DNA of 64,000 nt from Deltaproteobacteria bacterium (GTDB lineage Bacteria > Desulfobacterota > Syntrophia > Syntrophales > Smithellaceae). Both the position numbers and the translations under genes were made by a program. The notes beneath the pieces were generated by a model. It was not told the DNA's origin. It made no database searches and saw nothing but the letters and a program-made list of their open reading frames with translations. Shown here piece after piece: positions 13,937 to 38,044 of this stretch (position 1 is the stretch's first letter; the number at the start of each line of letters is the position of its first letter). The DNA lies in NCBI GenBank assembly GCA_022710585.1, contig JAKLGV010000003.1:67308-131307 (forward strand), written 5' to 3'.

Positions 13937-14025
13937 ATGACAATCAAAGAATGAAAACAGAAAAACAACCAATCAATTAACCGGTTAACAAGCAATCACA
14001 ACAATTAACCAAAGGAGGTTCGGAG

Positions 14026-15885
14026 GTGATGGATAAAAGGCCTCAACTGAATGAGCAGCAAAGAAGAGCGGCAAGCTTCGGAAATGGAGTAGCATCAGTA
14101 CTTGCGATTCCCGGGTCGGGAAAGACACTTACCATGACCCACCGGATCGGCAATCTGATCCGGAAGCACGGCGTAGCTCCGGAAAACATCCTGGGACTGA
14201 CGTTTACCCGGAATGCTGCCGCGGCCATGAAAACAAGACTGGAACCCGTGCTGAACAAGATGACGAAACGTGTCCAGCTGCAGACCATGCATGCCTTCTG
14301 CTATTCCCTTTTGAAGAATGAAGGCAGGACGTTTGAGATCATTACCGAGAAGGACCAGCTGACCTTGATCAAGAAGCTGGCCAAGAAAGAAAACATCGGA
14401 AAGATTCCCAGCGGCATGATCGTCAGAGAGATCGGACTGGCCAAGAACAATCTGATCACCTGGTCTGAATTCAAGGAAATATACCAGGGCGACCTGATGA
14501 TGATGAAGATCGGTCACATCTACATGTCCTATGAAGAGTCCAAGAGAAAGAACCTTCAGCTGGACCTGAATGACCTTCTGATGGAGGCCTATAAGCTCCT
14601 GAAAGAAAACACTTCAGTCAGAAAAAAGTATCAGGAGCAATATTCGCATATCCTTGTGGATGAGTTCCAGGACACCAATCCAGCCCAGATGGGGATATTG
14701 CAGTTACTGGTATCCGGGAGGAACGGAGACACCAGTTTCTGGGTCTGCGGAGATGACTGGCAGAGTATCTATGCTTTTACGGGAGCATCCGTCGGCAATA
14801 TCCTGAACTTCAAGGACATGTTCAAGAACTCCAAGCAGTTTATCCTGGATATGAACTACCGTTCCACACCGGAAATCCTGAACGTCTGTCAGAAGCTGAT
14901 CGCCCATAATACCCGGAAGATCGAAAAGACATTAAGAACTCAAAACTCCAAGGGAGAAGGAGTCGTAGCTCTGTGCGGTGTCAACGAGGAAGACGAATCT
15001 TTACAGATCGTCAACGAGATCAAGGATCTTCTGGAAAACAGGGGCTATGGCTACAGGGATATTGCCGTTTTATACAGGGCCAACTGTCAGAGCAGGATCA
15101 TAGAGGAGGCTTTCTCCAAATTTAAGGTTCCCTATCATGTGGAAAACGGCATGAGCTTCTACCAGAGACATGAGGTAAAGACCTTGCTGGAGTATCTGAG
15201 ATTTATAGACGGTCCTGATTCTGAAGAAGGAGACGATGCTTTAAGAAAAATAATAAACGTACCTAACCGTTACATCGGGAGGAGCTTTATGACAGTTCTG
15301 GAAGAGCAGGCGTCGGCAAAGGACAAACACCTTTATCAGGCACTGAAGACCATGAAGATCGAAGTGCCGTATCTGAGAAAGTACATCAAGCAGTTTATAG
15401 AGATCATTGATCCATTGATAAGGGACAAATCTCAGTTGGAACCTGCCGAGCTCATCGGAATCCTGAGGGAAGCCCTGGAGTATGACCGTTATATAACGGA
15501 TGAAGACATCCCCAGCCCGGATGATGAGAAGATCGCCAATATCAATCAGCTGCAGCTTGCAGCAACCCGTTACAGTGACATCCGGTCATTGTTGAACTAC
15601 ACGGGCAGTTTCAGGGATGAAACATCTAATGACAGGAATGGTGTCAGCCTAATGACCATTCACAAAGCCAAGGGACTGGAGTTTCCAATCGTGTTCGTCA
15701 CCGGACTGATAGAGGGCATGCTGCCTCATAAGAACGGTGACCTGGAAGAGGAAAGAAGAATTGCCTTTGTAGGCATTTCCAGGGCGATGAAGCAGTTGTA
15801 CCTGACCTGTTCTGCAACTTATGCAGGCAGGCCGGTCAAGCGTTCACCGTTTCTGGAGGAGATGCTGTCGGGAAAGGTTGAATGA
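14026..15885 (+). CDS. UvrD/Rep/PcrA-family (SF1) DNA helicase
   Basis: Motifs seen: motif I AIPGSGKTLT, motif II LVDEFQDTNPAQ, YRS at motif IV, and C-terminal TIHKAKGLEF and VGISRA. The start could be the GTG at 14026 or the ATG at 14029. Confidence 0.9.
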   Translation: MMDKRPQLNEQQRRAASFGNGVASVLAIPGSGKTLTMTHRIGNLIRKHGVAPENILGLTFTRNAAAAMKTRLEPVLNKMTKRVQLQTMHAFCYSLLKNEGRTFEIITEKDQLTLIKKLAKKENIGKIPSGMIVREIGLAKNNLITWSEFKEIYQGDLMMMKIGHIYMSYEESKRKNLQLDLNDLLMEAYKLLKENTSVRKKYQEQYSHILVDEFQDTNPAQMGILQLLVSGRNGDTSFWVCGDDWQSIYAFTGASVGNILNFKDMFKNSKQFILDMNYRSTPEILNVCQKLIAHNTRKIEKTLRTQNSKGEGVVALCGVNEEDESLQIVNEIKDLLENRGYGYRDIAVLYRANCQSRIIEEAFSKFKVPYHVENGMSFYQRHEVKTLLEYLRFIDGPDSEEGDDALRKIINVPNRYIGRSFMTVLEEQASAKDKHLYQALKTMKIEVPYLRKYIKQFIEIIDPLIRDKSQLEPAELIGILREALEYDRYITDEDIPSPDDEKIANINQLQLAATRYSDIRSLLNYTGSFRDETSNDRNGVSLMTIHKAKGLEFPIVFVTGLIEGMLPHKNGDLEEERRIAFVGISRAMKQLYLTCSATYAGRPVKRSPFLEEMLSGKVE

Positions 15886-17796: not shown

Positions 17797-18549
17797 TCAT
17801 AACTTATCCTTCGATGTCAAGTCGGCATATTTTTTCCGCAGAGATCCTCCTTTCAAATTTATTTTGTGAGCATTGTGTACCAGACGGTCCAGGATAGCAT
17901 CTGCAACCGTCGGGTCGCCGATCTGTTCATGCCAGTGTTCTACGGGCAGCTGACTGGTGACAATCGTCGAACCATGACCGTGCCGTTCTTCGATCACCTC
18001 CAGAAGGTCTCGTCGTTCCGGATCGGTCATGGGAGCAAGCCCCAAGTCGTCAATCACCAGGACATGCGCTTTGGACAGTTGAGATATGGTTTTCCCGTAG
18101 CTTCCGTCACCCCTGGCCAGAGCCATCTGATAAGAGAACTTCGGAGCGCGGATGTAAAGAGCGCGATACCCTTCGCGGCAGGCTTTGTTTGTTAGGGCGC
18201 AGGCAAGATAAGTTTTTCCCACGCCGGTGGGACCGCTGATAATGACATTTTGATGTCGTTTGATCCAATCACAAGAGACGAGCTTCATCATAACGGATTG
18301 ATCAAGCCCCCGAGGTGCTTTGAAGTCGATATCTTCGACGCAGGCGTTGATCTTAAGACGGGCATTTTTTAGATAACGGGCCATCCGGTTATCTTCCTTC
18401 CAGGTCCATTGACTTTCGACAATAAGACCAAAACGATCGGCAAAAGAAAGCTGATCCATATCTGGTTGTTTGAGCTGATCGGAGAAAGCCTGGGCCATCC
18501 CCGCCAGTTTCATGGTGTGGAGCTTATTGATGGTTTGCTGGTTAAGCAT
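17797..18549 (-). CDS. istB: IS21-family transposition helper ATPase IstB
   Basis: Walker A ISGPTGVGKTYLACAL and Walker B LVIDDLG are present. It overlaps the istA stop, which is the typical arrangement. Confidence 0.9.
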   Translation of the reverse strand: MLNQQTINKLHTMKLAGMAQAFSDQLKQPDMDQLSFADRFGLIVESQWTWKEDNRMARYLKNARLKINACVEDIDFKAPRGLDQSVMMKLVSCDWIKRHQNVIISGPTGVGKTYLACALTNKACREGYRALYIRAPKFSYQMALARGDGSYGKTISQLSKAHVLVIDDLGLAPMTDPERRDLLEVIEERHGHGSTIVTSQLPVEHWHEQIGDPTVADAILDRLVHNAHKINLKGGSLRKKYADLTSKDKL

Positions 18550-20131
18550 GGAACACCTCCTGTGTCAGATAGTAATCTTTTCCACGAAGATTCTCATGAA
18601 GGATTGGCTTTTCCACAGTGGCGGGCACCGGTAAATTCTGAGTGTCCAGTTTACTTTTGAGGATCGATTCGACACTTTTGTAACTGTAGGCTTTGATGAT
18701 CAGAGCACGGGCGCAGGCAGCCTCCAGTCGTTCGGGTGAAAACTTCTTGGCCAGTCTCATGATGCCCAGGCAGGAGCGGAAGCCTTGTTCGGGATGGGTT
18801 CTGTTCTCCATGATACAAGTGACCAGGGCCCGGGTTTGAGGACCGTTTTGCCCCGCCCAGTGAACGATCCGGGACGGCGTCCACTCCAGATACTTTTGAT
18901 GGGATTTGGGCATATGTTCCGGGAGGGTGGTATGGCTTCCCCGGTGCATACTTCTGGCATGAACGGCAATCCGTTTGTTCTTGAACAGGATTTCAACGAT
19001 GTTTTGGGTAATCCGGACTTCCACTTGTTCTTTGACCAACTGATAAGGGACACTGTAGTAATGGCCGTCCACATCAATATGATAATCGATATTGACCCGT
19101 GCTTTCTTCCATCTTGCATATTCATATGGGATGGCGGGCAGCGGTTTTGACGCCGGCCGGTCGATGGTTTCAAATAAGGTCTTTCTTGTGGCGTCCATCT
19201 TTTGAAACTTGCGATTGTTCAGCTCGGTAAGCTTTTGAGCAATAGCGGTATTCAGTTCCGTGATACTGAAAAAGGTATGATTGCGCAGCGCTGCCAGAAT
19301 CGACCGCTCCGCAATCAGAACGCCGGATTCTACTTTGGCCTTGTCTTTTGGTTTGGATACTCTTGCCGGAATCACCACCGCCCCATAATGACCGGCCAGC
19401 TCCTGATAGGTGGGGTTGATGTCCGGTTCGTAATAACAGGGTTTGGTGATCCCGGATTTAAGGTTATCCGGCACAAGAATCTCCGGGACGCAACCGAAGA
19501 ATCGAAACGCCTGAACATGGGCATCAATCCACGAGGGAATATCCTGAGAGAAAAACGCCCGCGCAAAGGTATAGTTGCTTGCCCCCCAAACGGCCAGAAA
19601 CAGCCAGGCGTCATGGGTTTTCCCGGTGGCCTGGTCCGTGACCGGGATGGTCTGGCCTGCGTAGTCAATGAAGAGTTTCTCTCCGGCACGGTGGGTCTGA
19701 CGCAGGGAAACGTCTATCTTATCCAACCATTGGTGATAAATAAGACAAAACTGACTGTATTGATAACCGTCGGGGTTGGCTTGCTTATATTCCAGCCACA
19801 ATAACCGGAGTGTGACGCTTTTCCGGGTCAGTTCCTTGCGGATATATTCCGGCGACGGCATGCCGCGTTTGCCTGGCAATGGAACCGTACCGGCAGGATA
19901 AATATGTTGCTCTAAAAGGTTGTCATCCCAATCGGGCGGCAATGGCCAGGTCACTCCGGCTTGTTCGGCACGAAACAAATAATCTCTGACCGTGCTACGG
20001 GCAATGTTGCAGCTTTCGGCAATCTTTTTGTTGGATAACTTCTTTTCTACTTTTAATCGTAAAACTTCTCTAATCGTTCGCATGGATAACCTTTCCGCCG
20101 CCATAACTGCCTCCGTTTTTGTGTCCGGCAT
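18542..20131 (-). CDS. istA: IS21-family transposase IstA
   Basis: It has an N-terminal HTH (IAESCNIARSTVRDYL) and a DDE core (LFIDYAG...). Its length and its pairing with IstB fit the family. The true start may be an internal Met. Confidence 0.9.
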   Translation of the reverse strand: MPDTKTEAVMAAERLSMRTIREVLRLKVEKKLSNKKIAESCNIARSTVRDYLFRAEQAGVTWPLPPDWDDNLLEQHIYPAGTVPLPGKRGMPSPEYIRKELTRKSVTLRLLWLEYKQANPDGYQYSQFCLIYHQWLDKIDVSLRQTHRAGEKLFIDYAGQTIPVTDQATGKTHDAWLFLAVWGASNYTFARAFFSQDIPSWIDAHVQAFRFFGCVPEILVPDNLKSGITKPCYYEPDINPTYQELAGHYGAVVIPARVSKPKDKAKVESGVLIAERSILAALRNHTFFSITELNTAIAQKLTELNNRKFQKMDATRKTLFETIDRPASKPLPAIPYEYARWKKARVNIDYHIDVDGHYYSVPYQLVKEQVEVRITQNIVEILFKNKRIAVHARSMHRGSHTTLPEHMPKSHQKYLEWTPSRIVHWAGQNGPQTRALVTCIMENRTHPEQGFRSCLGIMRLAKKFSPERLEAACARALIIKAYSYKSVESILKSKLDTQNLPVPATVEKPILHENLRGKDYYLTQEVFHA

Positions 20132-20396
20132 GTAGCGGCTTTCTGTGGGTTTATCCAGCGTCCTTTATGCTCCTCCCGAGGGGTGGCGCAATGGATCGGA
20201 ATCAGGTGGCGACTTCCCCCGGAATGGGGTGGCGACTTAAATCGGAATCAGGTGGCGGAATGAATCAGAATCGAGTGGCGATTTGCGTCGGAATACGCAA
20301 AAGACGCAAAGCATTATTGAAAAAAAGAAAAAATGGCTCGCAGATTATTATTCAGCAAGAAAACTTTGTAGTTGAAATATATTTCTTTAAGATAAC

Positions 20397-23115: not shown

Positions 23116-23799
23116 ATGATTGAGAAAAAAATATTTTATGTTTACCAGTATATGGATAAGAATAAAAAAAAGCCGTTTTATGTCGGAAAAGGAACCGGTG
23201 ATAGAAAACATGCCCATATGAGAGAGGCGCGGAAAGGTGTGAATCGTATCCTGTGTGATAAAATCAGAAAGCTTGAATTTGAAAAAGGTGTTAAAATAGT
23301 CGTAATTGAAGACAATATTACAGAGTGGGAAGCTTTTCAGAAGGAAAGCAGACTAATTGAAAATATTGGTCGCCTTGATTTAGGAACAGGACCACTTTTA
23401 AATCAGTCATTTGGTGGCGAAGGCATTTCTGGCGGCATTGATATATATGGTTACCGGAAACAGGGCATAGCAAGGAAAATTACAGACATGGTGCACAATG
23501 GTATGCTTATTCAGGATATGCCGAAGGAAATCAGAAAATTTGTGATTGAAAATGAAATGAAAGTTAAGTGGGTTGAAAGTAGGATCATCCCACATATTCA
23601 GGAAATGGGGAATGTGGGATATCATTACAAAGGACCCAAAAAACTGTTACTTGGATGGCAATTTTCCTTAGACCGAAAAATGATAGACGTTAATACATTG
23701 ATTTTGGAAACAAAGGGACTTTTAAAAGTACATGGCGATTTACCACTTAATAAAGGATTTGTCTCAGTTGCACCAAAGAATTATAATTTTGGATATTGA
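23116..23799 (+). CDS. GIY-YIG-domain protein
   Basis: The N-terminal FYVYQYMDKNKKKPFYVGKGTGDRKHAH, plus the later E...N, fits GIY-YIG (a GIY -> FYVY variant, with YVGKG). GGGAGG lies upstream. Confidence 0.55.
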   Translation: MIEKKIFYVYQYMDKNKKKPFYVGKGTGDRKHAHMREARKGVNRILCDKIRKLEFEKGVKIVVIEDNITEWEAFQKESRLIENIGRLDLGTGPLLNQSFGGEGISGGIDIYGYRKQGIARKITDMVHNGMLIQDMPKEIRKFVIENEMKVKWVESRIIPHIQEMGNVGYHYKGPKKLLLGWQFSLDRKMIDVNTLILETKGLLKVHGDLPLNKGFVSVAPKNYNFGY

Positions 23800-23844: not shown

Positions 23845-24099
23845 ATGACCCCCATAGAATCCATCTATGAAATACGGTCAGATGTCCTTTATCTTCAGCG
23901 GTATCTCTATGAAAAGAAACCTGTCGTTTATCATAGAGCATATGAGAGATATGAAAAGCTGGTGGACAGGTTTTTCAAGGAAAGTGTCAATGTATTTGAA
24001 CCGGAGAAACGCAGGATACTGCGGATCGAATGCCTGGATGACTCAAATTATTTTTTAAATCTGCTGGAAACGACGGTGGAATATTATCAGGTGAATTAA
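23845..24099 (+). CDS. hypothetical protein
   Basis: It is an 84-aa ORF with no recognised motif. Confidence 0.35.
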   Translation: MTPIESIYEIRSDVLYLQRYLYEKKPVVYHRAYERYEKLVDRFFKESVNVFEPEKRRILRIECLDDSNYFLNLLETTVEYYQVN

Positions 24100-24161
24100 G
24101 GAGAAAAACCGTTTTGTCCAAAAAACAAACATATCTCATATAATCAAGCACTTGACTCCTA

Positions 24162-24190
24162 TTGACATCAGGAAATATTTGCTGTATATA
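24162..24190 (+). promoter_or_regulatory. putative sigma-70 promoter for the alpha-CTD/DUF4139 operon
   Basis: TTGACA (24162-24167), a 17-nt spacer, then TATATA (24185-24190). This would give a leader of about 225 nt before the ATG at 24419. Confidence 0.45.
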
Positions 24191-24418
24191 ACTTTCCAAC
24201 AAAGGTTGAATTAACCTTTTACCTTGAATTTTTCGCCGCATCTCACCGGCTATCATATACATCCAACGCCGGAAATTTATCTTAAGTACCCAATATTGCG
24301 TTTAAAAATGCTCATTCAAGCATTGGTGGTGAAGTTTGCAATCCATCATGGGGGTTATTTTGCCTGATGGAATTTTACGGTAAATTATTAATATTTAAAA
24401 GTAATTTAAGGAGGAGCG

Positions 24419-25024
24419 ATGGAAACACCAAGGATAATTTACGGCGGTTATGAACGAACGGCTTCCGGGATGGTCTATGTCGGAAAATTGTCAGAGCAGA
24501 CAAGAATGAATCGTGTCAACAAACTAAAAAGTTTTCTCTTAAGTCTTATTGAGGAAGAGGTTGAACTTTCCTTCCGTACACAAAATTGCCTGAATAATGC
24601 AGGAATCAAGTTGGTCGGTCAACTGGTGCAGATGTCTGCTTCTGAACTTCTTCATCTGAAAAACTTTGGACGGACATCACTGCACGACATCGAACAGGAT
24701 TTAGTGAAAAAAGGTTTGACCCTGGATATGAGACTTAATTTTTTTCCGTGGAATGGAACGGACGAAGGCAATGAATTGATCCAGATTCTTTTCTTACAGA
24801 AACCTGGTGGTGGTTTTTATATAGAAAAAAGAACTGCCGAGGGTCTGGACACTGATTTGAGGAAATTAAATCAGACCGTGAACAAAAAGCAGCAATCGCT
24901 TTTGGACACACAGTATCTTCTGGAAATGTTGGAGTCAAAGTTTCAGAAAGACGCACCTTATCTGCCAAACTTGATCAAGCGGCACCGTCAGTGGATGGAG
25001 AGGGAAGGAAATAATATCCGTTAA
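24419..25024 (+). CDS. free-standing RNA polymerase alpha-subunit C-terminal-domain (alpha-CTD) homologue with ~100-aa C-terminal extension
   Basis: LSFRTQNCLNNAGIKLVGQLVQMSASELLHLKNFGRTSLHDIEQDLVKKGLTLDMRLNFFPW aligns by eye with E. coli RpoA L.VRSANCLK...IGDLV...ELL...NLGKKSL.EIK..L...GLSLGMRLENWPP. The Arg equivalent to R265 is included. Confidence 0.75.
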   Translation: METPRIIYGGYERTASGMVYVGKLSEQTRMNRVNKLKSFLLSLIEEEVELSFRTQNCLNNAGIKLVGQLVQMSASELLHLKNFGRTSLHDIEQDLVKKGLTLDMRLNFFPWNGTDEGNELIQILFLQKPGGGFYIEKRTAEGLDTDLRKLNQTVNKKQQSLLDTQYLLEMLESKFQKDAPYLPNLIKRHRQWMEREGNNIR

Positions 25025-25050
25025 TATCAAACTTAAAATACAGGGAGGAA

Positions 25051-26430
25051 ATGAAAATGAAACAACAGACACAAGGCATATACGAATCCACATTCCAGCA
25101 GCAGACTGCAATGGAAGTAACTGTTTACAATAACAACAGAGGGCTTGTTAAGGATCAGCGGCAAATCAAATTACCTAAGGGATTGATAGAACTTCGCTTT
25201 ATGGATATTGCAGCGAACATAGAAGTGTCTTCAATACATCTCCACTCAATTACAACACCGGATAAATTATCAATATTGGAGCAGAATTGCGAATATGAAT
25301 ATATTGAACCAGATAAACTTCTGGCCAAATATATCGGAAAGGAAGTCAGCATCTATAGAAGAAATCATTTAAAAGACCAGGTGGAGTTAATGACAGCGAC
25401 AATTCTATACAGCGGCCAGGATAACATTATATATCAAAGCGGTGATGAAATTATTATGAGTCTTCCATCACAAATTATTTTCCCAAAAGTTTCGGAGACG
25501 ATAAAGACAAAGCCTACCATTACATGGCTTATTTATAATGACAATCCATCTCTGCAAACAATTGAAACCGTCTATATTGCAAGAGGCCTTAACTGGAATG
25601 CTGATTATCGTATTGTGCTGAATCAGGAAGACAGCAAAGCTGATATTTTTGCATGGGCAGACATAGAAAATGGCAGCCGTCTGGATTACAGTGGCACAAC
25701 CATTAAGCTCGTGGCCGGCGATGTCAATCACCTCCCTTATTATGATGATACGGCGGGAGCTGAGTATTCCCTTGGTCATAAACCGATCTCGTTCAAGGGA
25801 AAGTCTTTCGCTGATAATCATATCTATTCCATGGATAGACACACAACACTAAAGAATGGTCAAACAAAGCAGATAGGTTTACTACAAGCCAATGACGTCA
25901 AAATAAAAAAAGAATATCGTCTTTCCAGTCCTGAATTAACGGATCAAATCGCCTACGGAAGCATTTTGGCCCGTTCATCAGATGATGTAACCATTTATTT
26001 AACAATAGACAATAAGAAGAGTCACGGTTTAGGCATACCTTTGCCGGAGGGGAATGTTCATGTGTTCAAACGTGACAATAATGACAGCCTTCAGTTTATT
26101 GGCGCCGATACAATTGGTCATATCCCTGAAAATGAAACAGCATCTATCAAACTTGGCGCTGCTTTTGACATCAGAGCAACAAGAACTCAAAAAGACTTTC
26201 AGCAGATTTCCCAAAATATCCATGAAATTACTTATGAGATTAATATTCGTAACCATAAAAAAGAAGATGTAACCGTCAGGATTTTGGAAAATATTGCCAG
26301 CAACTGGATAATCCTTGAATCCTCACATAAGCTAAAGAGAATTGACTCTCGCTGGGTTGAGTGTCCTTTTCATGTAAAAAGTGGTAAAGAAATGACTCTG
26401 ACCTATAAGGTGAGAACAGGAGAAGAATAG
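25051..26430 (+). CDS. DUF4139 (MuiA-like, with DUF4140-type N-terminus) protein
   Basis: It is 459 aa and beta-rich. The opening VTVYNNNRGLVKDQRQIKLPKGLIELRFMDIAANIEVSSIHL matches the remembered family pattern. It starts 26 nt after the alpha-CTD gene. Confidence 0.55.
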   Translation: MKMKQQTQGIYESTFQQQTAMEVTVYNNNRGLVKDQRQIKLPKGLIELRFMDIAANIEVSSIHLHSITTPDKLSILEQNCEYEYIEPDKLLAKYIGKEVSIYRRNHLKDQVELMTATILYSGQDNIIYQSGDEIIMSLPSQIIFPKVSETIKTKPTITWLIYNDNPSLQTIETVYIARGLNWNADYRIVLNQEDSKADIFAWADIENGSRLDYSGTTIKLVAGDVNHLPYYDDTAGAEYSLGHKPISFKGKSFADNHIYSMDRHTTLKNGQTKQIGLLQANDVKIKKEYRLSSPELTDQIAYGSILARSSDDVTIYLTIDNKKSHGLGIPLPEGNVHVFKRDNNDSLQFIGADTIGHIPENETASIKLGAAFDIRATRTQKDFQQISQNIHEITYEINIRNHKKEDVTVRILENIASNWIILESSHKLKRIDSRWVECPFHVKSGKEMTLTYKVRTGEE

Positions 26431-26434
26431 AAAT

Positions 26435-27190
26435 ATGGAAGACACAATAGCATTGCTCAAAGCAATATCTTATATCGTTTGGCCGATTTGTTTACTCTTG
26501 ATTGTTTTTATGTTCAGAAAAGAAATACGAACGGTGCTTCTTAGTTTTGTTCAAAAAAAGGCAAATGAGAACAAACCCCTTGTTGACAGGCCGTCAGACA
26601 CTCCAAAACCGGTGGCCGAGCCAGAAGAACCCGACGAACCACGGGATCACCAACCGTCGGTTACATTGCCTCCCGAGGATCAGATGTCAGTTAAGGTATG
26701 CAAAAATAACTCAGGGGATTATTTTGTCGTACTAGACGACGAAGAAAACGATGAAAAAATTTACTGTATTACACCACAAGGTATACCAAAATGGATAGAA
26801 AAACGAATACTTCAAACAATTGAATATGTCAATGTTGATATGCTCGGAGAAGAACAATTAAATAAATTCTATAATTTCATTGAAAACGCCGAACCAGATG
26901 CAGCAGAAGTCGGAATAATCAGAAAGCCTCTTATTGTATATTATTTGCCAAGTTATATGAGAATGGTAAATAATTTAAATACATTGCCAGCAAAAATGTT
27001 GGCATATATTAAAAGCAAAGGAAGAGTAACTTGGCGTGAAGTCAAACAATATCTTCATGACACATATGGGTATTCGCGTACATCAGGTTCAATGGGGGCG
27101 TCTTTGAAGGCGTTGGAAACATTGGGGCTTGTGACAATCAATGGCCAAGGTGATGATAAAATCATTACTTACGTTGTTCCGAAGAGATAA
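26435..27190 (+). CDS. membrane-anchored protein with a probable C-terminal winged-helix domain
   Basis: It has an N-terminal TM helix (ISYIVWPICLLLIVFMF), a P/E-rich linker, and a C-terminal LAYIKSKGRVTWREVKQYL...LKALETLGLV. It starts 4 nt after the DUF4139 stop. Confidence 0.5.
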   Translation: MEDTIALLKAISYIVWPICLLLIVFMFRKEIRTVLLSFVQKKANENKPLVDRPSDTPKPVAEPEEPDEPRDHQPSVTLPPEDQMSVKVCKNNSGDYFVVLDDEENDEKIYCITPQGIPKWIEKRILQTIEYVNVDMLGEEQLNKFYNFIENAEPDAAEVGIIRKPLIVYYLPSYMRMVNNLNTLPAKMLAYIKSKGRVTWREVKQYLHDTYGYSRTSGSMGASLKALETLGLVTINGQGDDKIITYVVPKR

Positions 27191-27228
27191 AATTGCGATA
27201 AGACTTTAAAATAATATTGGAGTAAACA

Positions 27229-28236
27229 ATGAGCACATCAAATTATGACATAAAAAATTATTCATTTGTGTTCCCTAATTTTTCTGAGGATGATTGGATC
27301 GAACGCATAAATGAAACCGACGGTTTCAACAAAAGTTTACTAATTACTCAAATACGATTACTAAATCTGATCAAATCAATAAATGATAAACAGGTAACGC
27401 CAGCAAGACTTGCTTGGGTAAATCTCTGGACAAAATGCATGTCTTTGTTAGATGCTACATCCGCTGCTTTGTCTGGTAATTCTACTTTTATTTTAGACGT
27501 TCTCGGACGCATTTCAACGGAGACATTGTTGCATACCTTAACAATCGCTGATCCTTTTTTTAAGTCGTACGATAAAAAAAATAAATTGATTACCGATAAT
27601 TCAATGAAAATTGTTGATAAAATAGTTGATCGTCTATGTGCATACACAGCGTGGGCACTATCTGCAGACGTTAACTTCATTAAATGGGAGTTTATGAAGA
27701 AAGCAAATCTTGATATGATATGGGATCCAGAACCGGCTAGAAGTATTAAATATAATTCTCGTGAATATAATAAATATAAATCAATTTTTGGCGAGATAAC
27801 AATTGATATAGATCCTGTAACTTTACGAATAGGTAGAAAAAAACAAGAAGAAGAGCTAATGTTCGCGCGAAAGAGGATTGAGACATGGCTTAATCATCCT
27901 GATTTGTTTGAATGGCAGAAAACGATTAGAGAGTATAATGAACAGATAAAACCAAATACAGTATCTTTCTTTGCTCTGTTTAATGAAACCGAAAAAACAA
28001 TAAGAAGAAAAATGCAAAACATCGATTTGGGAATTGGCTATTTGAATTACAAGAAAGCATCATTGTTGATACACGGTTCAACAATAGAACAAATGAACTT
28101 AATTAACAATAACATGATATATCAAATAACACCTTCTTCTCGTGAAGATATAGAAACTAGCGCTGAACTCGTTCGTTCTGAATGTAACAACATAGCTTTA
28201 TGTCTTGAAATATTCAAAAGACAAAATATTATATAA
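27229..28236 (+). CDS. hypothetical protein (last gene of the alpha-CTD operon)
   Basis: It is 335 aa, helical in character and AT-rich. No motif recognised. Confidence 0.5.
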   Translation: MSTSNYDIKNYSFVFPNFSEDDWIERINETDGFNKSLLITQIRLLNLIKSINDKQVTPARLAWVNLWTKCMSLLDATSAALSGNSTFILDVLGRISTETLLHTLTIADPFFKSYDKKNKLITDNSMKIVDKIVDRLCAYTAWALSADVNFIKWEFMKKANLDMIWDPEPARSIKYNSREYNKYKSIFGEITIDIDPVTLRIGRKKQEEELMFARKRIETWLNHPDLFEWQKTIREYNEQIKPNTVSFFALFNETEKTIRRKMQNIDLGIGYLNYKKASLLIHGSTIEQMNLINNNMIYQITPSSREDIETSAELVRSECNNIALCLEIFKRQNII

Positions 28237-28312
28237 AGATCTATTTGTGCATTCTAGCATGATTAGTCGCTTCTTATGATTGGGAGCAATTGTTTTATAA
28301 GGGACAATCAAA

Positions 28313-28573
28313 ATGTCCATCCACATCATCCCCATAAATAAACTCAGTGCCGCAGCTTTAAAAGGTGTCATCGAAGAATTTATCACGAGAAGCGGAACCG
28401 ACTACGGAACAGAGGAAGCTACTCTGGATACTAAATTCAGGCAGGTCAAAAATCAGCTAAAGAACGGAACAGCTGTTCTTGTGTTTGATGACGAGACGGA
28501 GACTACTAATATATTCTTAGCTGATGATCCTGTGTTGAAGAAGATTGTTTGCTCTGAACAGAATATGACCTGA
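28313..28573 (+). CDS. YheU-family (UPF0270) protein
   Basis: IPINKLSAAALKGVIEEFITRSGTDYGTEEATLDTKFRQVKNQLKNGTAVLVFDDETETTNI parallels E. coli YheU (..L..LIESFVLREGTDYG..E.SL..KV..V..QL..GEAV.V). Confidence 0.65.
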   Translation: MSIHIIPINKLSAAALKGVIEEFITRSGTDYGTEEATLDTKFRQVKNQLKNGTAVLVFDDETETTNIFLADDPVLKKIVCSEQNMT

Positions 28574-28610
28574 CAGTTTATGCAAGTCTTATATTCACAT
28601 CTTCCTGTAG

Positions 28611-28844
28611 TTAACGGTTGAAAATGGATATGCAGACCGGGATGAAGAAAATAGATGATGCGATAATGGCTCCATAGGAAAACCAGTTCATGTATTTTTC
28701 ATATCCCCGAAGGCTTACATCCCAGTCACTTTTCTCAATGAACTGCTGAAATTCCCTGATCGGATTTATGGCTTTAAATTTCTTAAGGGTATATGCCACT
28801 TTTGTTCCTGCCACATTTTCGGAAAAAGTAATGTCTGCCTGCAT
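28611..28844 (-). CDS. small membrane protein
   Basis: It is 77 aa with a C-terminal hydrophobic helix (AIIASSIFFIPVCISIF). Confidence 0.35.
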   Translation of the reverse strand: MQADITFSENVAGTKVAYTLKKFKAINPIREFQQFIEKSDWDVSLRGYEKYMNWFSYGAIIASSIFFIPVCISIFNR

Positions 28845-28889
28845 TGTAGTTATCCTTTGATTTTATTTATTGATTATTTGACCGATAAG

Positions 28890-29477
28890 CTATGTGTGAT
28901 ATTTTCTGACGACTGCCGTGACAACTCCGCCAAGACGCAGTTCCGCTACAGGTTTAATCCTGGGGTATTTGGGATTGGCTGCTTCCAGATAAACCTCTTG
29001 GCCATTCTTGTGAAAATACTTCATTGTCCAAGCACCATCCACCTCGGCAATTACAATGTCTCCCGTTTTCGGTTCTTTGCCACGTTCGACAAGCACCAAA
29101 TCATCCGGCATGATTCCGGCACCGATCATGGAATCTCCATCAACCTTCAGAAGAAATGACTCTGCCTGTTTTGTGATCAGGTACTCGTCAAAGGAGATTA
29201 CATCGCGCAATTCTTCTTCTGCCGGTGAGGGAAAGCCGGCTGATACCTGTCCGGCTAACGGGACACCGATAAGCGGGTTAATAAACGTCAGATGTCCTGA
29301 TTTGTCCTTTTCCAGAATCCCTTCCTGCAAGAGTTTGTTCATCCAGAAATGGACAACGCTCTTCGACCTGACGGCAAGCAAAGTAAGCATTTCCTCATAA
29401 GTCGGCATACGATGGCGATCACGGTTAAAATCGGCTAACTTTTGCGCTACTGATTTTATGGTTCGTTTCGTTTCCAT
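28890..29477 (-). CDS. LexA/CI-type repressor with S24 autopeptidase domain
   Basis: It has an N-terminal wHTH (MPTYEEMLTLL..), an AG cleavage-site region (PLAGQVSAGFPSP), the catalytic GDSM, and the downstream K in TMKYF. It is 195 aa. Confidence 0.85.
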   Translation of the reverse strand: METKRTIKSVAQKLADFNRDRHRMPTYEEMLTLLAVRSKSVVHFWMNKLLQEGILEKDKSGHLTFINPLIGVPLAGQVSAGFPSPAEEELRDVISFDEYLITKQAESFLLKVDGDSMIGAGIMPDDLVLVERGKEPKTGDIVIAEVDGAWTMKYFHKNGQEVYLEAANPKYPRIKPVAELRLGGVVTAVVRKYHT

Positions 29478-29484
29478 GGTTCGT

Positions 29485-29514
29485 ACTATAATAGAACAAA
29501 TGTTCTATTGTCAA
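29485..29514 (-). promoter_or_regulatory. repressor promoter with embedded palindromic operator (GAAC-N4-GTTC type)
   Basis: On the minus strand the sequence reads TTGACA (29514-29509), an 18-nt spacer, then TATAGT (29490-29485). The perfect 16-bp palindrome TAGAACAAATGTTCTA (29492-29507) fills the spacer. The -10 element ends only 7 nt before the ATG at 29477. Confidence 0.55.
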
Positions 29515-29652
29515 GAATATTTTTAATTATTAATAAACATGGGTCATCTGATGAACCGGTCTTAAGATTTATTCTGTAATTCAAATTGATTTATGCAAAA
29601 CAATAATTTATAAGTAAAACACACTGTTAAAATAAATCATGGAGGATACTAA

Positions 29653-29922
29653 ATGAACAAGTCTGATTTGATCGAAGAAGTAGCAAAGGTAACATGCACT
29701 AAGAAGGAAGCAACAGAGGTAATAGAAGCAACACTGGCAGCCATCCAGAAATCACTCAAGAAAGGCAATTCTGTAACTCTGGTGGGATTCGGGACATTTG
29801 ATGTCAAGAAGAGAAAAGCCCGCACAGGCAGAAATCCTCAGACAGGAAAAGCACTTAAGATAGCCGCCAAGAAGGTTCCCGTATTCAAAGCCGGAAAAGG
29901 CCTAAAAGACGCCGTAAAGTAA
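29653..29922 (+). CDS. HU-family nucleoid-associated DNA-binding protein
   Basis: [11 protein letters not shown]....K.EA...IEA....I...L..G..V.LVGFGTF.V..R.AR.GRNPQTG..L.I...KVP.FKAGK is the canonical HU/IHF signature. Confidence 0.9.
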
Positions 29923-31433: not shown

Positions 31434-32654
31434 CTATTTGGTAGGCAGAGACTTTTCGCGAGGAGAGTTTCTGTTTTTCTTTTTTTTAACTCTTAACATA
31501 TTTTCTAAGCCCTTCACCACATCCTTCTTGTGCTCTGGACTTAAATGTGAATAACGTTCACTCATAGCAATGCTTTTATGACCCATTAACTTTGCTATTG
31601 TATAAAGAGGCGTTCCTTGAATTGCAAGCCATGAAGCAAAGGTGTGCCTACAAGTATGGAAAACAACTCTTTGCCTTCGATCGGTAACGTCATTATTAAA
31701 TCCTAAATCATCAACGACTCGTTGAAAGGCATTGGAGATTTCTTTAATTTTTTGACCGTCTTTATCTTTAAAGATGTAATCATTTAAATTATCCGGTAAA
31801 CGATGATCTAATATTTTCTTAACTGTTCCTGTCATTGGCGCGTAACGTGTTTCACCATTTTTTGTATCACGTAAAGTAACAAGATCATTTTTTAAATCTA
31901 CATCACAGCCTTTAAGATTAAATATTTCAGAGGCTCTTGCGCCTGTATGCAAAGAAATTAAGGTCATGTCATGTAGTTTTGGATCTTTCAGCTCTTTGTA
32001 CTCCTTCTTTATTTGATGGTTACGCTTCAATTCTTTTAAAAGAATGCCTGCTTCTTCGTCTGAAAAATATCTATCACGAGCATTGTGTATAATTGGCATA
32101 ATACCTTTTTTTTCGCCCGGCCTCTTCTTTTTGACAGGGTTGTTTCCATGATACATATCCCAGTCTGCTGCTTTATTAAACATGGCACGTATCAAAGAAA
32201 GACAATGTGATACAGTCTTAGGAGATAAATTATCCTTTAACATTTCCGATTTCATACGCTCAAGATCAAGTAGGGAAATTTCATCGAGACGTTTATTATC
32301 GAAACGAGATTTCAGATGATTTTCGTATCTACTTTTATCTTCAATCCCATCTCTGTTCTTATTTTCTGCTGACCATTTTAGATACTCTTCGGCTAATTTA
32401 CTGAACGTGATAGGCTTTTTTGTTTGTTTTGGCAACGCTTCTCCATGTCTTAAAGATCGCAGCCTTTCTGCTCTGATATGCGTCGCTGCTTGCGCAGAAT
32501 ATCCTTCAGATGTCCAACCTGCTTTTTCCCATATCTTCCTTTCTCCAGCTTTATATGTCAGATAAAAGCATTTATCTGTTTTACCATTAAAACGTCTTTC
32601 GTTAGATTCTATATAATAAATACCCGGTTGATTGTTGACCTTGATCTTTTTCAT
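31434..32654 (-). CDS. int: tyrosine-type site-specific recombinase (island integrase)
   Basis: The C-terminal catalytic region reads HTGARASE...HTCRHTFASWLAIQG..LYTIAKLMGHKSIAMSERYSHL (R..HxxR..Y). It is 406 aa and adjacent to the tRNA fragment. Confidence 0.9.
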   Translation of the reverse strand: MKKIKVNNQPGIYYIESNERRFNGKTDKCFYLTYKAGERKIWEKAGWTSEGYSAQAATHIRAERLRSLRHGEALPKQTKKPITFSKLAEEYLKWSAENKNRDGIEDKSRYENHLKSRFDNKRLDEISLLDLERMKSEMLKDNLSPKTVSHCLSLIRAMFNKAADWDMYHGNNPVKKKRPGEKKGIMPIIHNARDRYFSDEEAGILLKELKRNHQIKKEYKELKDPKLHDMTLISLHTGARASEIFNLKGCDVDLKNDLVTLRDTKNGETRYAPMTGTVKKILDHRLPDNLNDYIFKDKDGQKIKEISNAFQRVVDDLGFNNDVTDRRQRVVFHTCRHTFASWLAIQGTPLYTIAKLMGHKSIAMSERYSHLSPEHKKDVVKGLENMLRVKKKKNRNSPREKSLPTK

Positions 32655-35628: not shown

Positions 35629-38010
35629 ATGGCTAAGCTGACATTAGATGAATGGATTGCCCGCATCAGGAAGAACAAAAGTTTCAATTCCAATGCGGCG
35701 GCAATCGTTGACATCCCGGATAAACCGGGCGACTGGGAGGATTATCCTTCATGGGTCGATCCCCGGTTGGTTGCTGTCTTACAAAAACGCGGCATGGAGA
35801 AGCCGTACAAACATCAGGCGCAGGCCGTGCGCTTTATCCGCAATGGTCAGGATGTCGTGCTGGTGACGCCGACCGCCAGCGGAAAAACGTTATGCTATAA
35901 TCTCCCCGTTTTACAAAGCATTCTGGAGGAACCGGAAACACGCGCGTTGTATCTTTTTCCCACCAAGGCCCTGGCGCAGGATCAGATGCATGAAGTCCAC
36001 AGTCTGATTGGCGACCTGAAGGCGGACATCAAAACATTTACCTATGACGGCGACACGCCCGACGACGCGCGTCAGGCGATCCGCCGGCAGGGGCATATCG
36101 TGGTCACCAATCCGGACATGCTGCATGCCGGCATTTTGCCTCACCACACCAAATGGCAAAAGCTATTTATGAATTTGAAATACATCGTTATCGATGAGCT
36201 GCATATCTACCGCGGGATTTTCGGTTCGCACTTCGCCAATGTCATCCGCCGGCTCGTGCGGATCTGCCGTTTTTACGGCGCCAATCCCGTTTTTGTCTGC
36301 TGTTCGGCGACGGTGGCCAATCCCCGTGAACACGCGGAAAAAATTCTGGAGCGGCCTGTGGCCTTGCTGGATAAGAGCGGCGCGCCCACGGCGGCGAAAA
36401 CATTCATTCTCTATAATCCGCCGATCGTCAACCGTGAACTGGGTATCCGCCAGAGCGCAATGACACCGGCGCGTAAAATAGCATCCGATCTGATTGACAA
36501 CGATATTCAAACAATTGTTTTTGCCACCAGCCGTCTGAATGTCGAGGTCCTGACCAAATATCTGAAAGATAAATTTGTCAAAACAAAACCCATTGATAAT
36601 CATTTTGTAACGGGCTATCGCGGCGGCTATCTGCCGAACCTACGCCGCGAGATCGAAAGCGGTCTGCGCTCGCGCGAAGTAATGGGCGTGATCAGCACCA
36701 ATGCGCTGGAGCTGGGCATCGATATCGGCAATCTGGAAGCCTGCATCATGACGGGCTATCCCGGTTCCATTGCCAGCACATGGCAGCAGGCTGGGCGCGC
36801 GGGCCGTCGTTCCGGCCATTCGCTGGCGATTCTCATAGCGCGCAGCAATCCGCTGGATCAATTCATCATGGAAAATCCCGATTACTTTTTTGCCCTGTCC
36901 CCCGAGCACTGCCGCATTAATCCCGACAATCTGCTCATCCTGCTTCATCACATCAAAAGCGCGGCTTTTGAACTGCCTTTTGAAAAAGGTGAAAAATTCG
37001 GCGGCGAGAATCTGGAAGAATTTCTGGAGTACCTTGAAGAAAAAGGCGTGCTGCATCACACGAATGACCGGTGGCACTGGGCGGCGGAAAGTTATCCGGC
37101 GGACGAAGTCAGTCTGCGGTCGATTAATCCCGAAAACGTGGTGGTGGTTGATGCCACCGATGCCGGCAACCATAAAGTCATTGCCGAGGTTGATTGGGAC
37201 AGCGCGTTTACCATGGTGCACGATGAAGCCATTTATTTGCTGGCTTCCGATCAGTATCATGTGGACAAACTCGATCTGGAAAGAAAAAAAGCGTACGTGC
37301 GCAAGGTCGATACGGATTACTACACCGATGCCATGACGTACACGAACGTGCGGGTGATCGATTCATTTGACCATCATCGGGAGCCCGGAGCGATTGTGGA
37401 GCATGGCGAAGTGCAGGTCGTGCGCAAGGTGGTCGGGTATAAGAAGATCAAATTCTATACCTCGGAAAATCTCGGCTACGGCGATGTGAACCTGCCGGAA
37501 AAGGATATGCACACGACCAGTTACTGGTTTACGATCCCCCGTGACCGGCTGCGCGGACTTGGTTTCACCCCGGCGGAAATTATTGACGGACTGTCGGCGC
37601 TGGCCTATACGCTGCAGCATTTGTCGGCCATGTTTCTCATGGCGGACACCCACGATATTGACCGGTCCCTCGGGGATAAAAGCGGCGAATGGTTTGTCAA
37701 TCAGGGCAAGACGGGACGCAGTATTGCCTCGTTTAAAGAGGGAAAGTTGGGCATGACGGACAGCGGCGCCGTTGCGCGTATTGATGAATTCGATCCAACC
37801 ATTTTTATTTTTGATTCCTATCCCGGCGGCATCGGTTTTTCCGAATTGCTTTACCGCGAACATACCAATCTGCTTTCGGCCGTGGTGAACCTGATCCGGA
37901 AATGTCCCTGCGCTTATGGCTGTCCATCCTGTGTGGGGCCGACACTGGAGGTGGGAAAAACCGCCAAAGAAATTGTCCCGAAGATCGTTGAACTGATTCT
38001 CGGGAAATAG
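35629..38010 (+). CDS. DEAD/DEAH-box helicase with C-terminal DUF1998 Cys cluster (MrfA/YprA-like)
   Basis: Motifs seen: motif I TPTASGKTLCY, motif II VIDELH, motif VI QQAGRAGRR, and the C-terminal CPCAYGCPSCV. Confidence 0.85.
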   Translation: MAKLTLDEWIARIRKNKSFNSNAAAIVDIPDKPGDWEDYPSWVDPRLVAVLQKRGMEKPYKHQAQAVRFIRNGQDVVLVTPTASGKTLCYNLPVLQSILEEPETRALYLFPTKALAQDQMHEVHSLIGDLKADIKTFTYDGDTPDDARQAIRRQGHIVVTNPDMLHAGILPHHTKWQKLFMNLKYIVIDELHIYRGIFGSHFANVIRRLVRICRFYGANPVFVCCSATVANPREHAEKILERPVALLDKSGAPTAAKTFILYNPPIVNRELGIRQSAMTPARKIASDLIDNDIQTIVFATSRLNVEVLTKYLKDKFVKTKPIDNHFVTGYRGGYLPNLRREIESGLRSREVMGVISTNALELGIDIGNLEACIMTGYPGSIASTWQQAGRAGRRSGHSLAILIARSNPLDQFIMENPDYFFALSPEHCRINPDNLLILLHHIKSAAFELPFEKGEKFGGENLEEFLEYLEEKGVLHHTNDRWHWAAESYPADEVSLRSINPENVVVVDATDAGNHKVIAEVDWDSAFTMVHDEAIYLLASDQYHVDKLDLERKKAYVRKVDTDYYTDAMTYTNVRVIDSFDHHREPGAIVEHGEVQVVRKVVGYKKIKFYTSENLGYGDVNLPEKDMHTTSYWFTIPRDRLRGLGFTPAEIIDGLSALAYTLQHLSAMFLMADTHDIDRSLGDKSGEWFVNQGKTGRSIASFKEGKLGMTDSGAVARIDEFDPTIFIFDSYPGGIGFSELLYREHTNLLSAVVNLIRKCPCAYGCPSCVGPTLEVGKTAKEIVPKIVELILGK

Positions 38011-38044
38011 GCGCGACAAATATAAATCGGAATTATCTGAAAAT

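Follow-up and report, generated by a model that had tools for sequence, protein, structure and literature searches.

An orphan alpha-CTD gene at the head of a probable mosaic operon in a Syntrophales genome

To our knowledge, stand-alone copies of the C-terminal domain of the RNA polymerase alpha subunit (alpha-CTD) have no described function. One such protein is encoded by the first of four consecutive genes in an AT-rich island of a Syntrophales genome. Members of this order act as key syntrophs in anaerobic digesters, and as far as we know their mobile elements have hardly been studied. The locus raises two questions: whether its four genes form one dedicated system, as an earlier note on this DNA had proposed, and what role a duplicate of the host's polymerase domain may play in such a place.

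We analyzed the 64,000-nucleotide stretch that carries the locus (hereafter the window) together with homologous loci. Our main conclusion is that the locus is very probably a mosaic operon whose foundation is a conserved head module of 0.9 kb, made up of a promoter, a leader and the 201-aa gene 1. The searchable literature yielded nothing that links an orphan alpha-CTD to DUF4139, the domain encoded by gene 2, and the module with its interchangeable accessory genes appears to be previously undescribed; its function is what we infer below. Whichever function applies, the module flags a hot spot of accessory genes in Syntrophales.

The four genes and the orphan alpha-CTD

The four co-directional open reading frames (ORFs), with gaps of 26, 4 and 38 nt, were recovered at exactly the coordinates given earlier:

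24419-25024, + strand: gene 1, 201 aa (ORF call)
25051-26430, + strand: gene 2, 459 aa (ORF call)
26435-27190, + strand: gene 3, 251 aa (ORF call)
27229-28236, + strand: gene 4, 335 aa (ORF call)
28269-28287, + strand: first terminator-like hairpin past gene 4 (consensus match only)

Their AT-rich setting was confirmed as well, with a GC content of 0.34-0.40 compared to about 0.50 in the flanks. A consensus search detected no terminator-like site inside the cluster, which, together with the short gaps, fits a single transcription unit for genes 1-4; gene 4 is probably co-transcribed with the cluster in this window. A search for RNA runs containing the sequence returned none. The same backbone also carries an HU gene and a LexA-like gene.

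The product of gene 1 can be divided as follows:

aa 1-22: conserved beta-hairpin-like segment, followed by a linker helix
about aa 40-112: alpha-CTD
aa 113-201: helical domain specific to the family

Its proposed homology to the alpha-CTD, initially seen by eye, is borne out by a match to PF03118 (RNA_pol_A_CTD; aa 46-95, E 2.8e-17, 62.6 bits for a cutoff of 23.8). In the PDB, the family profile retrieved RpoA alpha-CTDs only (best E 2.8e-19) and matched residues 246-322 of E. coli RpoA at 1.3e-16; by sequence and profile, the match covers the entire domain and the linker helix as well. PF03118 is the sole Pfam domain of the protein, and PF01000 and PF01193 were not found, in agreement with the claim that the alpha N-terminal domain is missing. 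A bona fide RpoA was considered and rejected, as the protein has 201 aa instead of about 330 and lacks the N-terminal assembly domains; NCBIfam rpoA models score far under their cutoff (for example, 75 versus 302). The N- and C-terminal extensions, also reported before, are indeed family-specific segments for which no relatives were detectable. AlphaFold gave a poor model for gene 1 (pLDDT 57).

In RpoA, R265, N268, C269, G296 and S299 contact DNA, D259/E261 contact sigma, and K298 is a key contact to UP elements. We mapped gene 1 onto RpoA through the ELSVRSANCL and NxGxKSL motifs and established knowledge, a correspondence that we presume to be correct. On this basis, the equivalents of the five DNA contacts and of D259/E261 are conserved: R53, C57, G84 and S87 are invariant in the gene 1 family, and N56 is at least 90% conserved. 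R53, which lies in the motif ELSxR(S/T)xNCL, is the counterpart of R265 whose retention had been noticed from the window alone. The position of K298 is occupied by Thr in gene 1 and in at least 90% of the family, Lys being found only in deep-branching members. Gene 1 has the domain of RpoA and the contact residues named above as conserved, but differs from it by the K298 to Thr change and the lack of an N-terminal assembly domain, and also by its location: it resides outside the ribosomal-protein/rpoA operon, in islands of AT-rich DNA where a promoter and a leader of its own precede it.

The nearest RpoA sequences belong to deltaproteobacterial metagenome-assembled genomes (MAGs; 52-55% identity), while enterobacterial rpoA reaches 42%. 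This difference points to an origin in the host lineage, and the alpha-CTD of gene 1 is, judged by sequence, a close copy of the RpoA domain of that lineage. The family itself is narrow, with about 67 protein clusters from Smithella/Syntrophales MAGs of anaerobic digesters.

A constant head and its changing partners

The following features precede gene 1, all of them on the + strand:

24131-24161: conserved block 5' of the -35 hexamer (blastn and alignment of upstream regions)
24144-24155 (about -54 to -43): palindrome TCAAGCACTTGA, inside the conserved block
24162-24190: sigma-70-type promoter (TTGACA at 24162-24167, 17-nt spacer, TATATA at 24185-24190)
24198-24418: conserved 5' leader of about 220 nt
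24201-24205 with 24215-24219: leader hairpin
24235-24238 (GCCG), 24246-24250 (CCGGC) and 24268-24272 (GCCGG): exclusive pairings in the leader
24298-24302 (GCGTT), 24307-24312 (AATGC(T)) and 24319-24323 (AGCAT): exclusive pairings in the leader
24325-24329 with 24343-24347: leader hairpin
24410-24414: GGAGG, Shine-Dalgarno sequence of gene 1

DNA homology is common to about 45 loci and in most of them begins at 24131-24143 (blastn). A near-consensus sigma-70 promoter is kept in 35 of 37 distinct upstream regions, and the -10 hexamer reads TATAAT in several relatives. The leader accompanies gene 1 strictly, at exactly one copy per gene copy (58 nhmmer matches, zero elsewhere). Both of its alternative structures are 88.6-89.2% paired, compared to 23-48% in slid controls, helix 1:2 reaching 100% and helix 2:3 97.5%; these counts come from the sequences from which the structures were derived, and covariation is modest. 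The leader is probably structured. No Rfam family reached its gathering score anywhere in the window, leader included; the single candidate, Hammerhead_3 on the minus strand (23.3 bits versus 48.5), was discarded, since the CUGAUGA core is missing on direct reading.

What follows gene 1 is far less constant. The partner gene starts 26-55 nt downstream, and at least 12 alternative partner families were found. Among 40 distinct downstream contexts, DUF4139 accounts for 11, a 315-342-aa family without assignment for 8 and DUF2225 for 3, and further contexts have membrane proteins, PARG-like proteins or gene 3 itself next to gene 1; most loci were retrieved via gene 1, so that these statistics are biased. 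Many partners are single- or multi-pass membrane proteins, and in nearly all loci each has its own Shine-Dalgarno sequence and tight spacing. Gene maps and a neighbor joining tree place the same partner types in separate gene 1 clades. At a single chromosomal site, three Smithella strains carry gene 1 alone, with two cargo genes, or with a c4-family gene. One Smithella MAG has two copies of gene 1 (L051 and L053), and at L053 it is solitary, between housekeeping genes, which suggests that it may work without a partner.

The assignment of gene 2 to DUF4139 stands, with PF13598 at 32.7 bits, just over the 31.8 cutoff, and 3681 homologues annotated as DUF4139; DUF4140 remains under threshold. Its placement in the MuiA family fails, as TIGR02231 (NCBIfam) gives 20.5 bits for a cutoff of 112.6. 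Compared to MuiA-like DUF4139/DUF4140 proteins, gene 2 passes DUF4139 and has a predicted structure that is likewise all-beta and multidomain, of the beta-sandwich type, but it is shorter and signal-less. Its subclade is about 30 aa shorter and has lost the N-terminal signal segment, and the protein is predicted to be cytoplasmic. The expected co-occurrence of orphan alpha-CTD and DUF4139 was found, the pair being syntenic in many independent loci. Seen from the gene 2 side, an alpha-CTD gene lies directly upstream in all three look-ups within 50-64% identity (P0086, P0089 and P0093), and in neither of two look-ups in the chromosomal clade at 43-44% identity. This linkage and the lost signal segment suggest, at the level of sequence, that genes 1 and 2 are functionally coupled.

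Gene 3 had been described as a membrane-anchored winged-helix protein. The anchor holds, with one hydrophobic segment (aa 3-36) ahead of a linker in which P, E and D make up 51% of the residues, but the winged-helix-like end is unsupported: four homologues gave no Pfam match at E up to 5, and gene 3 had no sequence-profile match in the PDB. Its C-terminal domain is conserved, and in some loci gene 3 itself comes straight after gene 1 as the partner. In two other lineages (L069-71 and L084), 4 nt again separate gene 3 from gene 2 before it, and genes 1-2-3 occur together there and in the window.

Gene 4 remains unassigned as before, without Pfam, NCBIfam or PADLOC match. Its 12 homologue clusters include members in restriction-modification, PLD and helicase islands devoid of alpha-CTD. 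It is absent from every other gene 1 locus with enough downstream sequence to show it, a count that excludes the closest relatives, whose contigs stop before its position. Relative to L009, gene 4 and the 5' part of the YheU gene form an insertion in the window. Judged by this distribution, gene 4 is independent cargo outside the recurrent module. The notion of a dedicated system in which an alpha-CTD, a DUF4139 protein, a membrane wHTH protein and a 335-aa protein act as one unit can appeal to the co-directional, closely spaced and terminator-free arrangement seen here; synteny contradicts a conserved unit of four, as gene 4 is missing elsewhere and the partners of gene 1 are swapped for many others, and we consider such a system highly improbable.

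Possible roles of the module

The retention of DNA-contact and sigma-contact residues suggests that gene 1 may mimic the docking domain of the polymerase. A possible reading, which we favor tentatively, is that this host alpha-CTD mimic serves as a bait or adaptor, with a variable partner coupled to it. Gene 1 would bind a usual ligand or modifier of the alpha-CTD, for which the candidates are a factor encoded by a phage or mobile element, an ADP-ribosyltransferase, or UP-like DNA adjacent to sigma region 4, and its family-specific extensions would couple this event to the partner. Here, the cytoplasmic gene 2 and the membrane-tethered gene 3 products would complete a bait/adaptor-plus-effector conflict module. 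The leader may gate expression, as its alternative pairings and a 5' pyrimidine tract could mask the Shine-Dalgarno sequence. If this were true, gene 1 would be the first core transcription-machinery domain known to act as bait in a conflict system, and DUF4139, a family of thousands of proteins, would gain its first functional context.

A narrower version, which we regard as unlikely, is an immune or conflict module in which a factor from a phage or mobile element docks on the bait or ADP-ribosylates its R53, whereupon the private domains of the bait switch on an interchangeable partner, which may be the cytoplasmic DUF4139 protein with its membrane protein, a different membrane protein, or an eraser of the PARG type. 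T4 Alt and ModA ADP-ribosylate R265 of the alpha-CTD; the corresponding R53 is invariant, and PARG/macro ADP-ribose hydrolase domains are found in partners or neighbors of gene 1 homologues at L038, L032 and L058. The link to phage ADP-ribosylation that these three loci provide is purely circumstantial, and no ADP-ribosyltransferase came to light. The surroundings are rich in defence genes: the window holds GajB-like, HerA-like, IetA-like and SngC/BrxH-like genes, and Type I restriction-modification (L001-4) or HEPN-SNF2 (L072) accompanies gene 1 homologues elsewhere. A constant head with interchangeable partners, many with membrane segments, is also the logic of BrxR/CapW-headed or retron, CBASS, Avs, PrrC and retron Ec48 systems (BrxR/CapW-type regulators precede diverse defence operons), and rapid strain-to-strain turnover and defence-rich neighbors are further likenesses to sensor/effector modules. 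Unlike them, the gene 1 module has a head that copies a host polymerase domain, for which we know of no precedent among described defence systems, and it has no PADLOC match. PADLOC-DB v2 thus lent no support to a defence role for genes 1-4 (a chance-level Cas11 at E 0.01 only), and it returned nothing for 10 alternative partners except a weak mad5 match for c51; genes 1-4 had no phage or plasmid matches. Against a conflict module also stand the lack of a recognizable toxin or nuclease effector among the main partners, the solitary gene 1, the change of K298 to Thr, the poor model of gene 1 and the lack of detectable relatives for the extensions that would couple it to a partner. The swappable partners (many of them membrane proteins), PARG-like neighbors and defence-rich surroundings fit decoy or guard logic, but a regulator with cargo fits almost equally.

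Indeed, it is conceivable, if somewhat doubtful, and nearly as likely as a bait or adaptor, that gene 1 is an operon-specific transcription regulator. Its helix-hairpin-helix would serve simply to bind DNA, namely the block or palindrome 5' of its own -35 hexamer, and autoregulate the head promoter that drives the cargo, possibly contacting sigma region 4 via E47/E49; BrxR/CapW-type regulators would be a comparable case. The invariable first position of gene 1 behind a conserved promoter, the upstream block with its palindrome, the conserved DNA-contact residues, the variable cargo and the tolerance of a solitary gene 1 all speak for such a regulator, which would be a DNA-binding head gene of a new class, accompanied by a conserved leader RNA that would be new as well. 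However, the alpha-CTD binds the minor groove weakly and with low specificity, K298 is lost, and we know of no alpha-CTD that acts as a stand-alone regulator. Moreover, a regulator would leave unexplained both the linkage of the signal-less DUF4139 subclade to gene 1 and the high identity to host RpoA. That same linkage, together with the tight spacing and individual Shine-Dalgarno sequences of the partners, also argues against gene 1 being a stand-alone modulator of host transcription, which seems quite improbable. The free alpha-CTD would then rival the alpha subunit of RNA polymerase in binding AT-rich UP-like DNA, sigma region 4 or class I activators (K298T would weaken UP-element binding), either damping spurious transcription of the AT-rich island ('stealth', as with plasmid-borne H-NS/HU) or diverting the host, and the genes downstream would just take advantage of a strong promoter and of a hot spot for insertion. 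The solitary copy at L053, the two copies in one MAG, the HU and LexA-like genes, the near-consensus promoter and an island whose GC content of 34-40% contrasts with about 50% for the host are in its favor.

Bacteroides UpxY, LoaP and RfaH/ops offer a parallel for the architecture. These NusG-family elongation-factor paralogues act on the elongation complex, whereas the domain of gene 1 is the alpha-CTD of the initiation stage. Like gene 1, they open variable operons and are preceded by a conserved leader: in both cases a conserved promoter and a long leader precede a paralogue of the core transcription machinery, and several copies per genome are possible.

Gene 1 and its conserved upstream region

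The four co-directional ORFs lie exactly where the earlier note had placed them, with gaps of 26, 4 and 38 nt, and the stretch that they occupy has 34 to 40% GC compared with about 50% GC in its flanks. No terminator-like site is present within the cluster, the first one being at 28269-28287. The features discussed below are:

24144-24155, palindrome TCAAGCACTTGA in a conserved upstream block, recognized by shared DNA homology
24162-24190, near-consensus sigma-70 promoter, TTGACA-N17-TATATA (TATAAT in several relatives)
within the 24131-24418 block, leader of about 220 nt between the promoter and gene 1
24419-25024, + strand, gene 1, alpha-CTD protein (201 aa)
25051-26430, + strand, gene 2, DUF4139 protein
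26435-27190, + strand, gene 3, membrane-anchored protein
27229-28236, + strand, gene 4, protein of 335 aa

The main result of the synteny and sequence comparisons is that promoter, leader and gene 1 form a head module that is combined with interchangeable partners; we consider this conclusion firm.

Gene 1 matches PF03118 (RNA_pol_A_CTD) at 62.6 bits, for a cutoff of 23.8, and its family profile retrieves only RpoA alpha-CTDs from the PDB (best E-value 2.8e-19; residues 246-322 of E. coli RpoA at 1.3e-16). All NCBIfam rpoA models match it solely through their C-terminal 60 to 85 residues, far below cutoff. Gene 1 thus encodes an alpha-CTD but no other part of alpha, as had been proposed from the sequence. 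The arginine claimed to correspond to R265 is indeed retained: R53, C57, G84, S87, E47 and E49 are invariant in the family alignments and N56 nearly so. From the ELSVRSANCL and NxGxKSL motifs, we take these residues to be the equivalents of R265, C269, G296, S299, D259, E261 and N268 of E. coli alpha, respectively. The K298 position is occupied by Thr in at least 90% of family members. The N- and C-terminal extensions are private to the family: when the last 94 residues of the protein were used in an exhaustive HMMER search, only seven representatives were returned, all of them family members, and no informative fusion; this agrees with the earlier description of the extensions as the protein's own. 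The AlphaFold model is of low confidence (pLDDT 57, and below 50 even in the alpha-CTD), and a Foldseek search with it gave no significant match.

A protein search yielded 67 clusters of such alpha-CTD proteins (121 to 259 aa, mostly 190 to 210 aa; 47 to 95% identity), followed by true RpoA proteins, matched over the CTD only at 52 to 55% identity and all from deltaproteobacterial MAGs. Where a source of the family is named, it is a Smithella, Syntrophaceae, Syntrophorhabdus or Syntrophales MAG, or one of a few contigs that are probably mis-binned; the metagenomes carrying DNA of the family come from anaerobic digesters, sludge and sediment. No relatives were found in IMG/VR, INPHARED phages, PLSDB plasmids or E. 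coli genomes, where mis-filed rpoA genes were the sole matches.

The conserved promoter and leader ahead of gene 1 are absent from the earlier note. Among about 45 loci, DNA homology starts abruptly at 24131-24143 and ends at the gene 1 stop codon, and a Shine-Dalgarno sequence, GGAGG, lies 5 nt ahead of the gene 1 ATG. In distant loci the leader DNA is still 70 to 80% identical, a conservation above that of the coding sequence, and an nhmmer profile of the leader gave 58 matches, exactly one per gene 1 copy and none elsewhere. The leader holds two further hairpins and two sets of three segments (GCCG / CCGGC / GCCGG and GCGTT / AATGC(T) / AGCAT); within a set, the middle segment can pair with the one on either side, the two pairings being mutually exclusive. 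Across 40 distinct sequences, pairing amounts to 88.6 to 89.2% for both of the alternative structures compared with 23 to 48% in slid controls (helix 1:2, 100%; helix 2:3, 97.5%), figures that come from the same sequences as the structures themselves and are accompanied by modest covariation. A coordinated triple change in two loci (L072 and L073), GCCA / CUGGC / GCCAG, retains both pairings. The evidence for the alternative pairings is suggestive, not conclusive. In minimum-free-energy folds of two divergent leaders, a 5' pyrimidine tract pairs with the Shine-Dalgarno and start region (z-scores -2.1 and -1.4). The leader has no match in Rfam and may be a new cis-regulatory RNA, present once per gene 1 copy.

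Three other candidates in this region were discarded. A minus-strand hammerhead ribozyme at 24225-24279 scored 23.3 bits (gathering score 48.5), lacks an intact catalytic core and runs opposite in direction to the conserved promoter. A 91-aa minus-strand ORF (23987-24262), apparently conserved in 18 loci, is an artefact that reflects conservation of the leader DNA. Against a leader peptide, the small ORFs on the + strand of the leader lack conservation, and the indels there do not come in multiples of three.

Partners of the head module

Synteny was examined in 62 loci fetched through gene 1, whose ORFs were clustered. In nearly all of them, the downstream gene (the partner) starts 26 to 55 nt past the gene 1 stop codon with its own Shine-Dalgarno sequence, and its identity is variable.

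Partners found directly downstream of gene 1 in 40 distinct contexts
DUF4139 protein (gene 2): 11
Family c4 (315 to 342 aa): 8
DUF2225 zinc-ribbon/TPR protein: 3
Gene 3 directly: 2
Family c120: 2
Found once each, among them a PARG-like macro-domain protein: several
Other or none: 8

When mapped on a neighbor joining tree of gene 1, each of the DUF4139, c4 and DUF2225 partner types is found in several separate clades, which implies repeated partner exchange. At one chromosomal site, flanked by an aminotransferase gene and mutY, three Smithella strains carry gene 1 alone, gene 1 with two cargo genes, or gene 1 with c4 (loci compared: L053:9768-10853, L054:4684-6824 and L052:5242-7078). The breakpoints fall right past the gene 1 stop codon, and the site is an insertion or replacement hot spot directly 3' of it. 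Many alternative partners have membrane segments, and a PDB profile search gave no match for c4. PADLOC recognized neither genes 1 to 4 nor ten partners, save for one weak mad5 match in one partner.

Gene 2, presented earlier as a DUF4139 protein, passes the threshold of that family narrowly (32.7 bits, cutoff 31.8) and has 3,681 homologs. Look-ups from its side are unbiased with respect to gene 1. They found an alpha-CTD gene directly upstream in three of three members of the gene 2 subclade (at least 50% identity, 451 to 458 aa), whereas two of two members of a clade at 43 to 44% identity (Nitrospirota and Syntrophorhabdaceae, about 485 aa) had an ordinary chromosomal context and no alpha-CTD gene. 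The N-terminal hydrophobic signal segment of the chromosomal clade (homologs P0104, P0109 and P0183) is lost from the linked subclade (P0086, P0089, P0093 and gene 2 of the window), which, judging from these sequences, appears to be a secreted family relocated to the cytoplasm. This dedicated cytoplasmic DUF4139 subclade is firmly established as one partner of the head module; in the closest gene 1 relatives (95% and 87% identity), gene 2 follows with 93 to 97% identity. The gene 2 model is confident (pLDDT 81.6), all-beta and multidomain; its best PDB fold matches, ribophorin I/Ost1-type beta-sandwiches (E-value 1.5e-5), have TM-scores of only 0.14 to 0.17 and indicate a predicted fold class only. 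No catalytic signature is evident. In a close relative (L084:1259-2633), two ORFs (aa 1-280 and 338-459) stand in place of an intact gene 2, owing either to pseudogene formation or to an assembly error.

The architecture proposed for gene 3 stands in part: it has a single N-terminal hydrophobic segment followed by a linker of 51% P/E/D, but the proposed winged helix could not be supported, a PDB profile search with gene 3 giving no match. A gene 3-like ORF follows gene 2 in L084 with the same 4-nt gap as in the window, and three further loci (L069-71) have the order gene 1, 118-aa membrane protein, gene 2, gene 3 (43% identity). Gene 3 is thus a firm, recurrent companion, and genes 1 and 2, with or without gene 3, are a recurrent module. 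The first 114 nt of gene 3, which encode the membrane anchor (26435-26548), are 95% identical to the starts of different, shorter ORFs downstream of other gene 1 homologs (L008:1654-1767 and L026:618-731); the anchor appears, from this DNA identity, to be a shared, recombining module.

The same synteny contradicts the four-gene unit put forward in the earlier note. Gene 4 is absent from every gene 1 locus with long enough downstream sequence (the contigs of the closest relatives end earlier), and, relative to locus L009, a segment holding gene 4 and the 5' portion of the YheU gene is inserted in the window. Its homologs, in 12 clusters, sit in other contexts: type III-like restriction-modification, a PLD/UvrD-like operon, and an S24/HU-headed island with RelA/SpoT and PLD genes. 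Left unassigned before, it likewise has no match in Pfam, NCBIfam or PADLOC profile searches. We conclude firmly that gene 4 is unrelated, independent cargo.

Possible roles of the module

Given its identity to the RpoA CTD of the host lineage and the retention of the DNA- and sigma-contact residues, gene 1 would most simply be a mimic of that domain. Such a mimic combined with a variable partner leads us to propose, tentatively, a bait or adaptor plus effector module in conflicts between host and phage or host and mobile element. R265 of the alpha-CTD is a classic target of phage ADP-ribosyltransferases, which is why PARG/macro-type ADP-ribose glycohydrolase domains near gene 1 homologs, in three loci only, deserve mention: they belong to two unrelated families and lie directly downstream in L038 (1856-2968) or three to four genes downstream in L058 (3127-4371) and L032 (a c106 homolog). 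Nearly as likely, yet itself doubtful, is an operon-specific regulator with the alpha-CTD as its DNA-binding domain, a role consistent with the first-gene position of gene 1, the conserved upstream palindrome and the tolerance of a solitary gene 1 copy. It is improbable, and ranks third, that the protein acts on its own by competing for UP elements or activators, serving stealth or takeover.

A constant head with variable partners is an architecture known from defense islands, and UpxY/LoaP-type operons share it with the loci studied here. The searchable literature holds no description of the gene 1 family or of an orphan alpha-CTD linked to DUF4139; the novelty lies in the head domain, the leader and the partner set. 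If the bait reading is true, immunity based on a polymerase-domain bait would be categorically new.

The surrounding island

Mobile-element and defense-like genes abound around the module. The window has an IS21 element and an integrase, and its LexA-like, HU and YheU genes are also present in other head-module loci. Various combinations of an 84-aa ORF, YheU (UPF0270), a LexA/UmuD-like S24 protein, HU and a tyrosine integrase are found again in L032, L033, L059, L073 and L083-86; these genes probably make up the backbone of a family of integrative elements, and in the window they are at 23845-24099, 28313-29922 and 31434-32654. No convincing attachment-site repeats were found for the island. 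Comparison of L001 with L002 places the left breakpoint of the element about 300 bp ahead of the head module; in these loci, the module edge is therefore not an attachment site.

The IS21-family element (17797-20294) carries istB (17797-18549) and istA (18542-20131) on the minus strand; four overlapping direct repeats with 23-nt spacing after istA (20180-20294) are probably its terminal transposase-binding repeats. Related loci carry type I restriction-modification and HEPN-SNF2 genes, and the window encodes several defense-like proteins:

1918-8020, HerA-like ATPase (1045 aa), then an LHH-family HNH/EndoVII nuclease domain protein (4988-5698), which may form a toxin/immunity pair with a small ORF downstream of it, and an IetA-like AAA ATPase (6518-8020)
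13127-15885, PD-(D/E)XK nuclease, then a UvrD-family helicase matching GajB at 3.7e-92; a GajA-like partner was not identified
23116-23799, GIY-YIG nuclease-like protein (LEM-3-like; PADLOC PD-T4-3 match, 1.5e-7), 620 nt upstream of gene 1
35629-39412, DEAD-box helicase (SngC/BrxH-like, E-value 5e-43) with an MrfA zinc-binding domain, then an RNase H-superfamily protein; together they resemble a further defense-type pair, located where the island has its GC-rich edge
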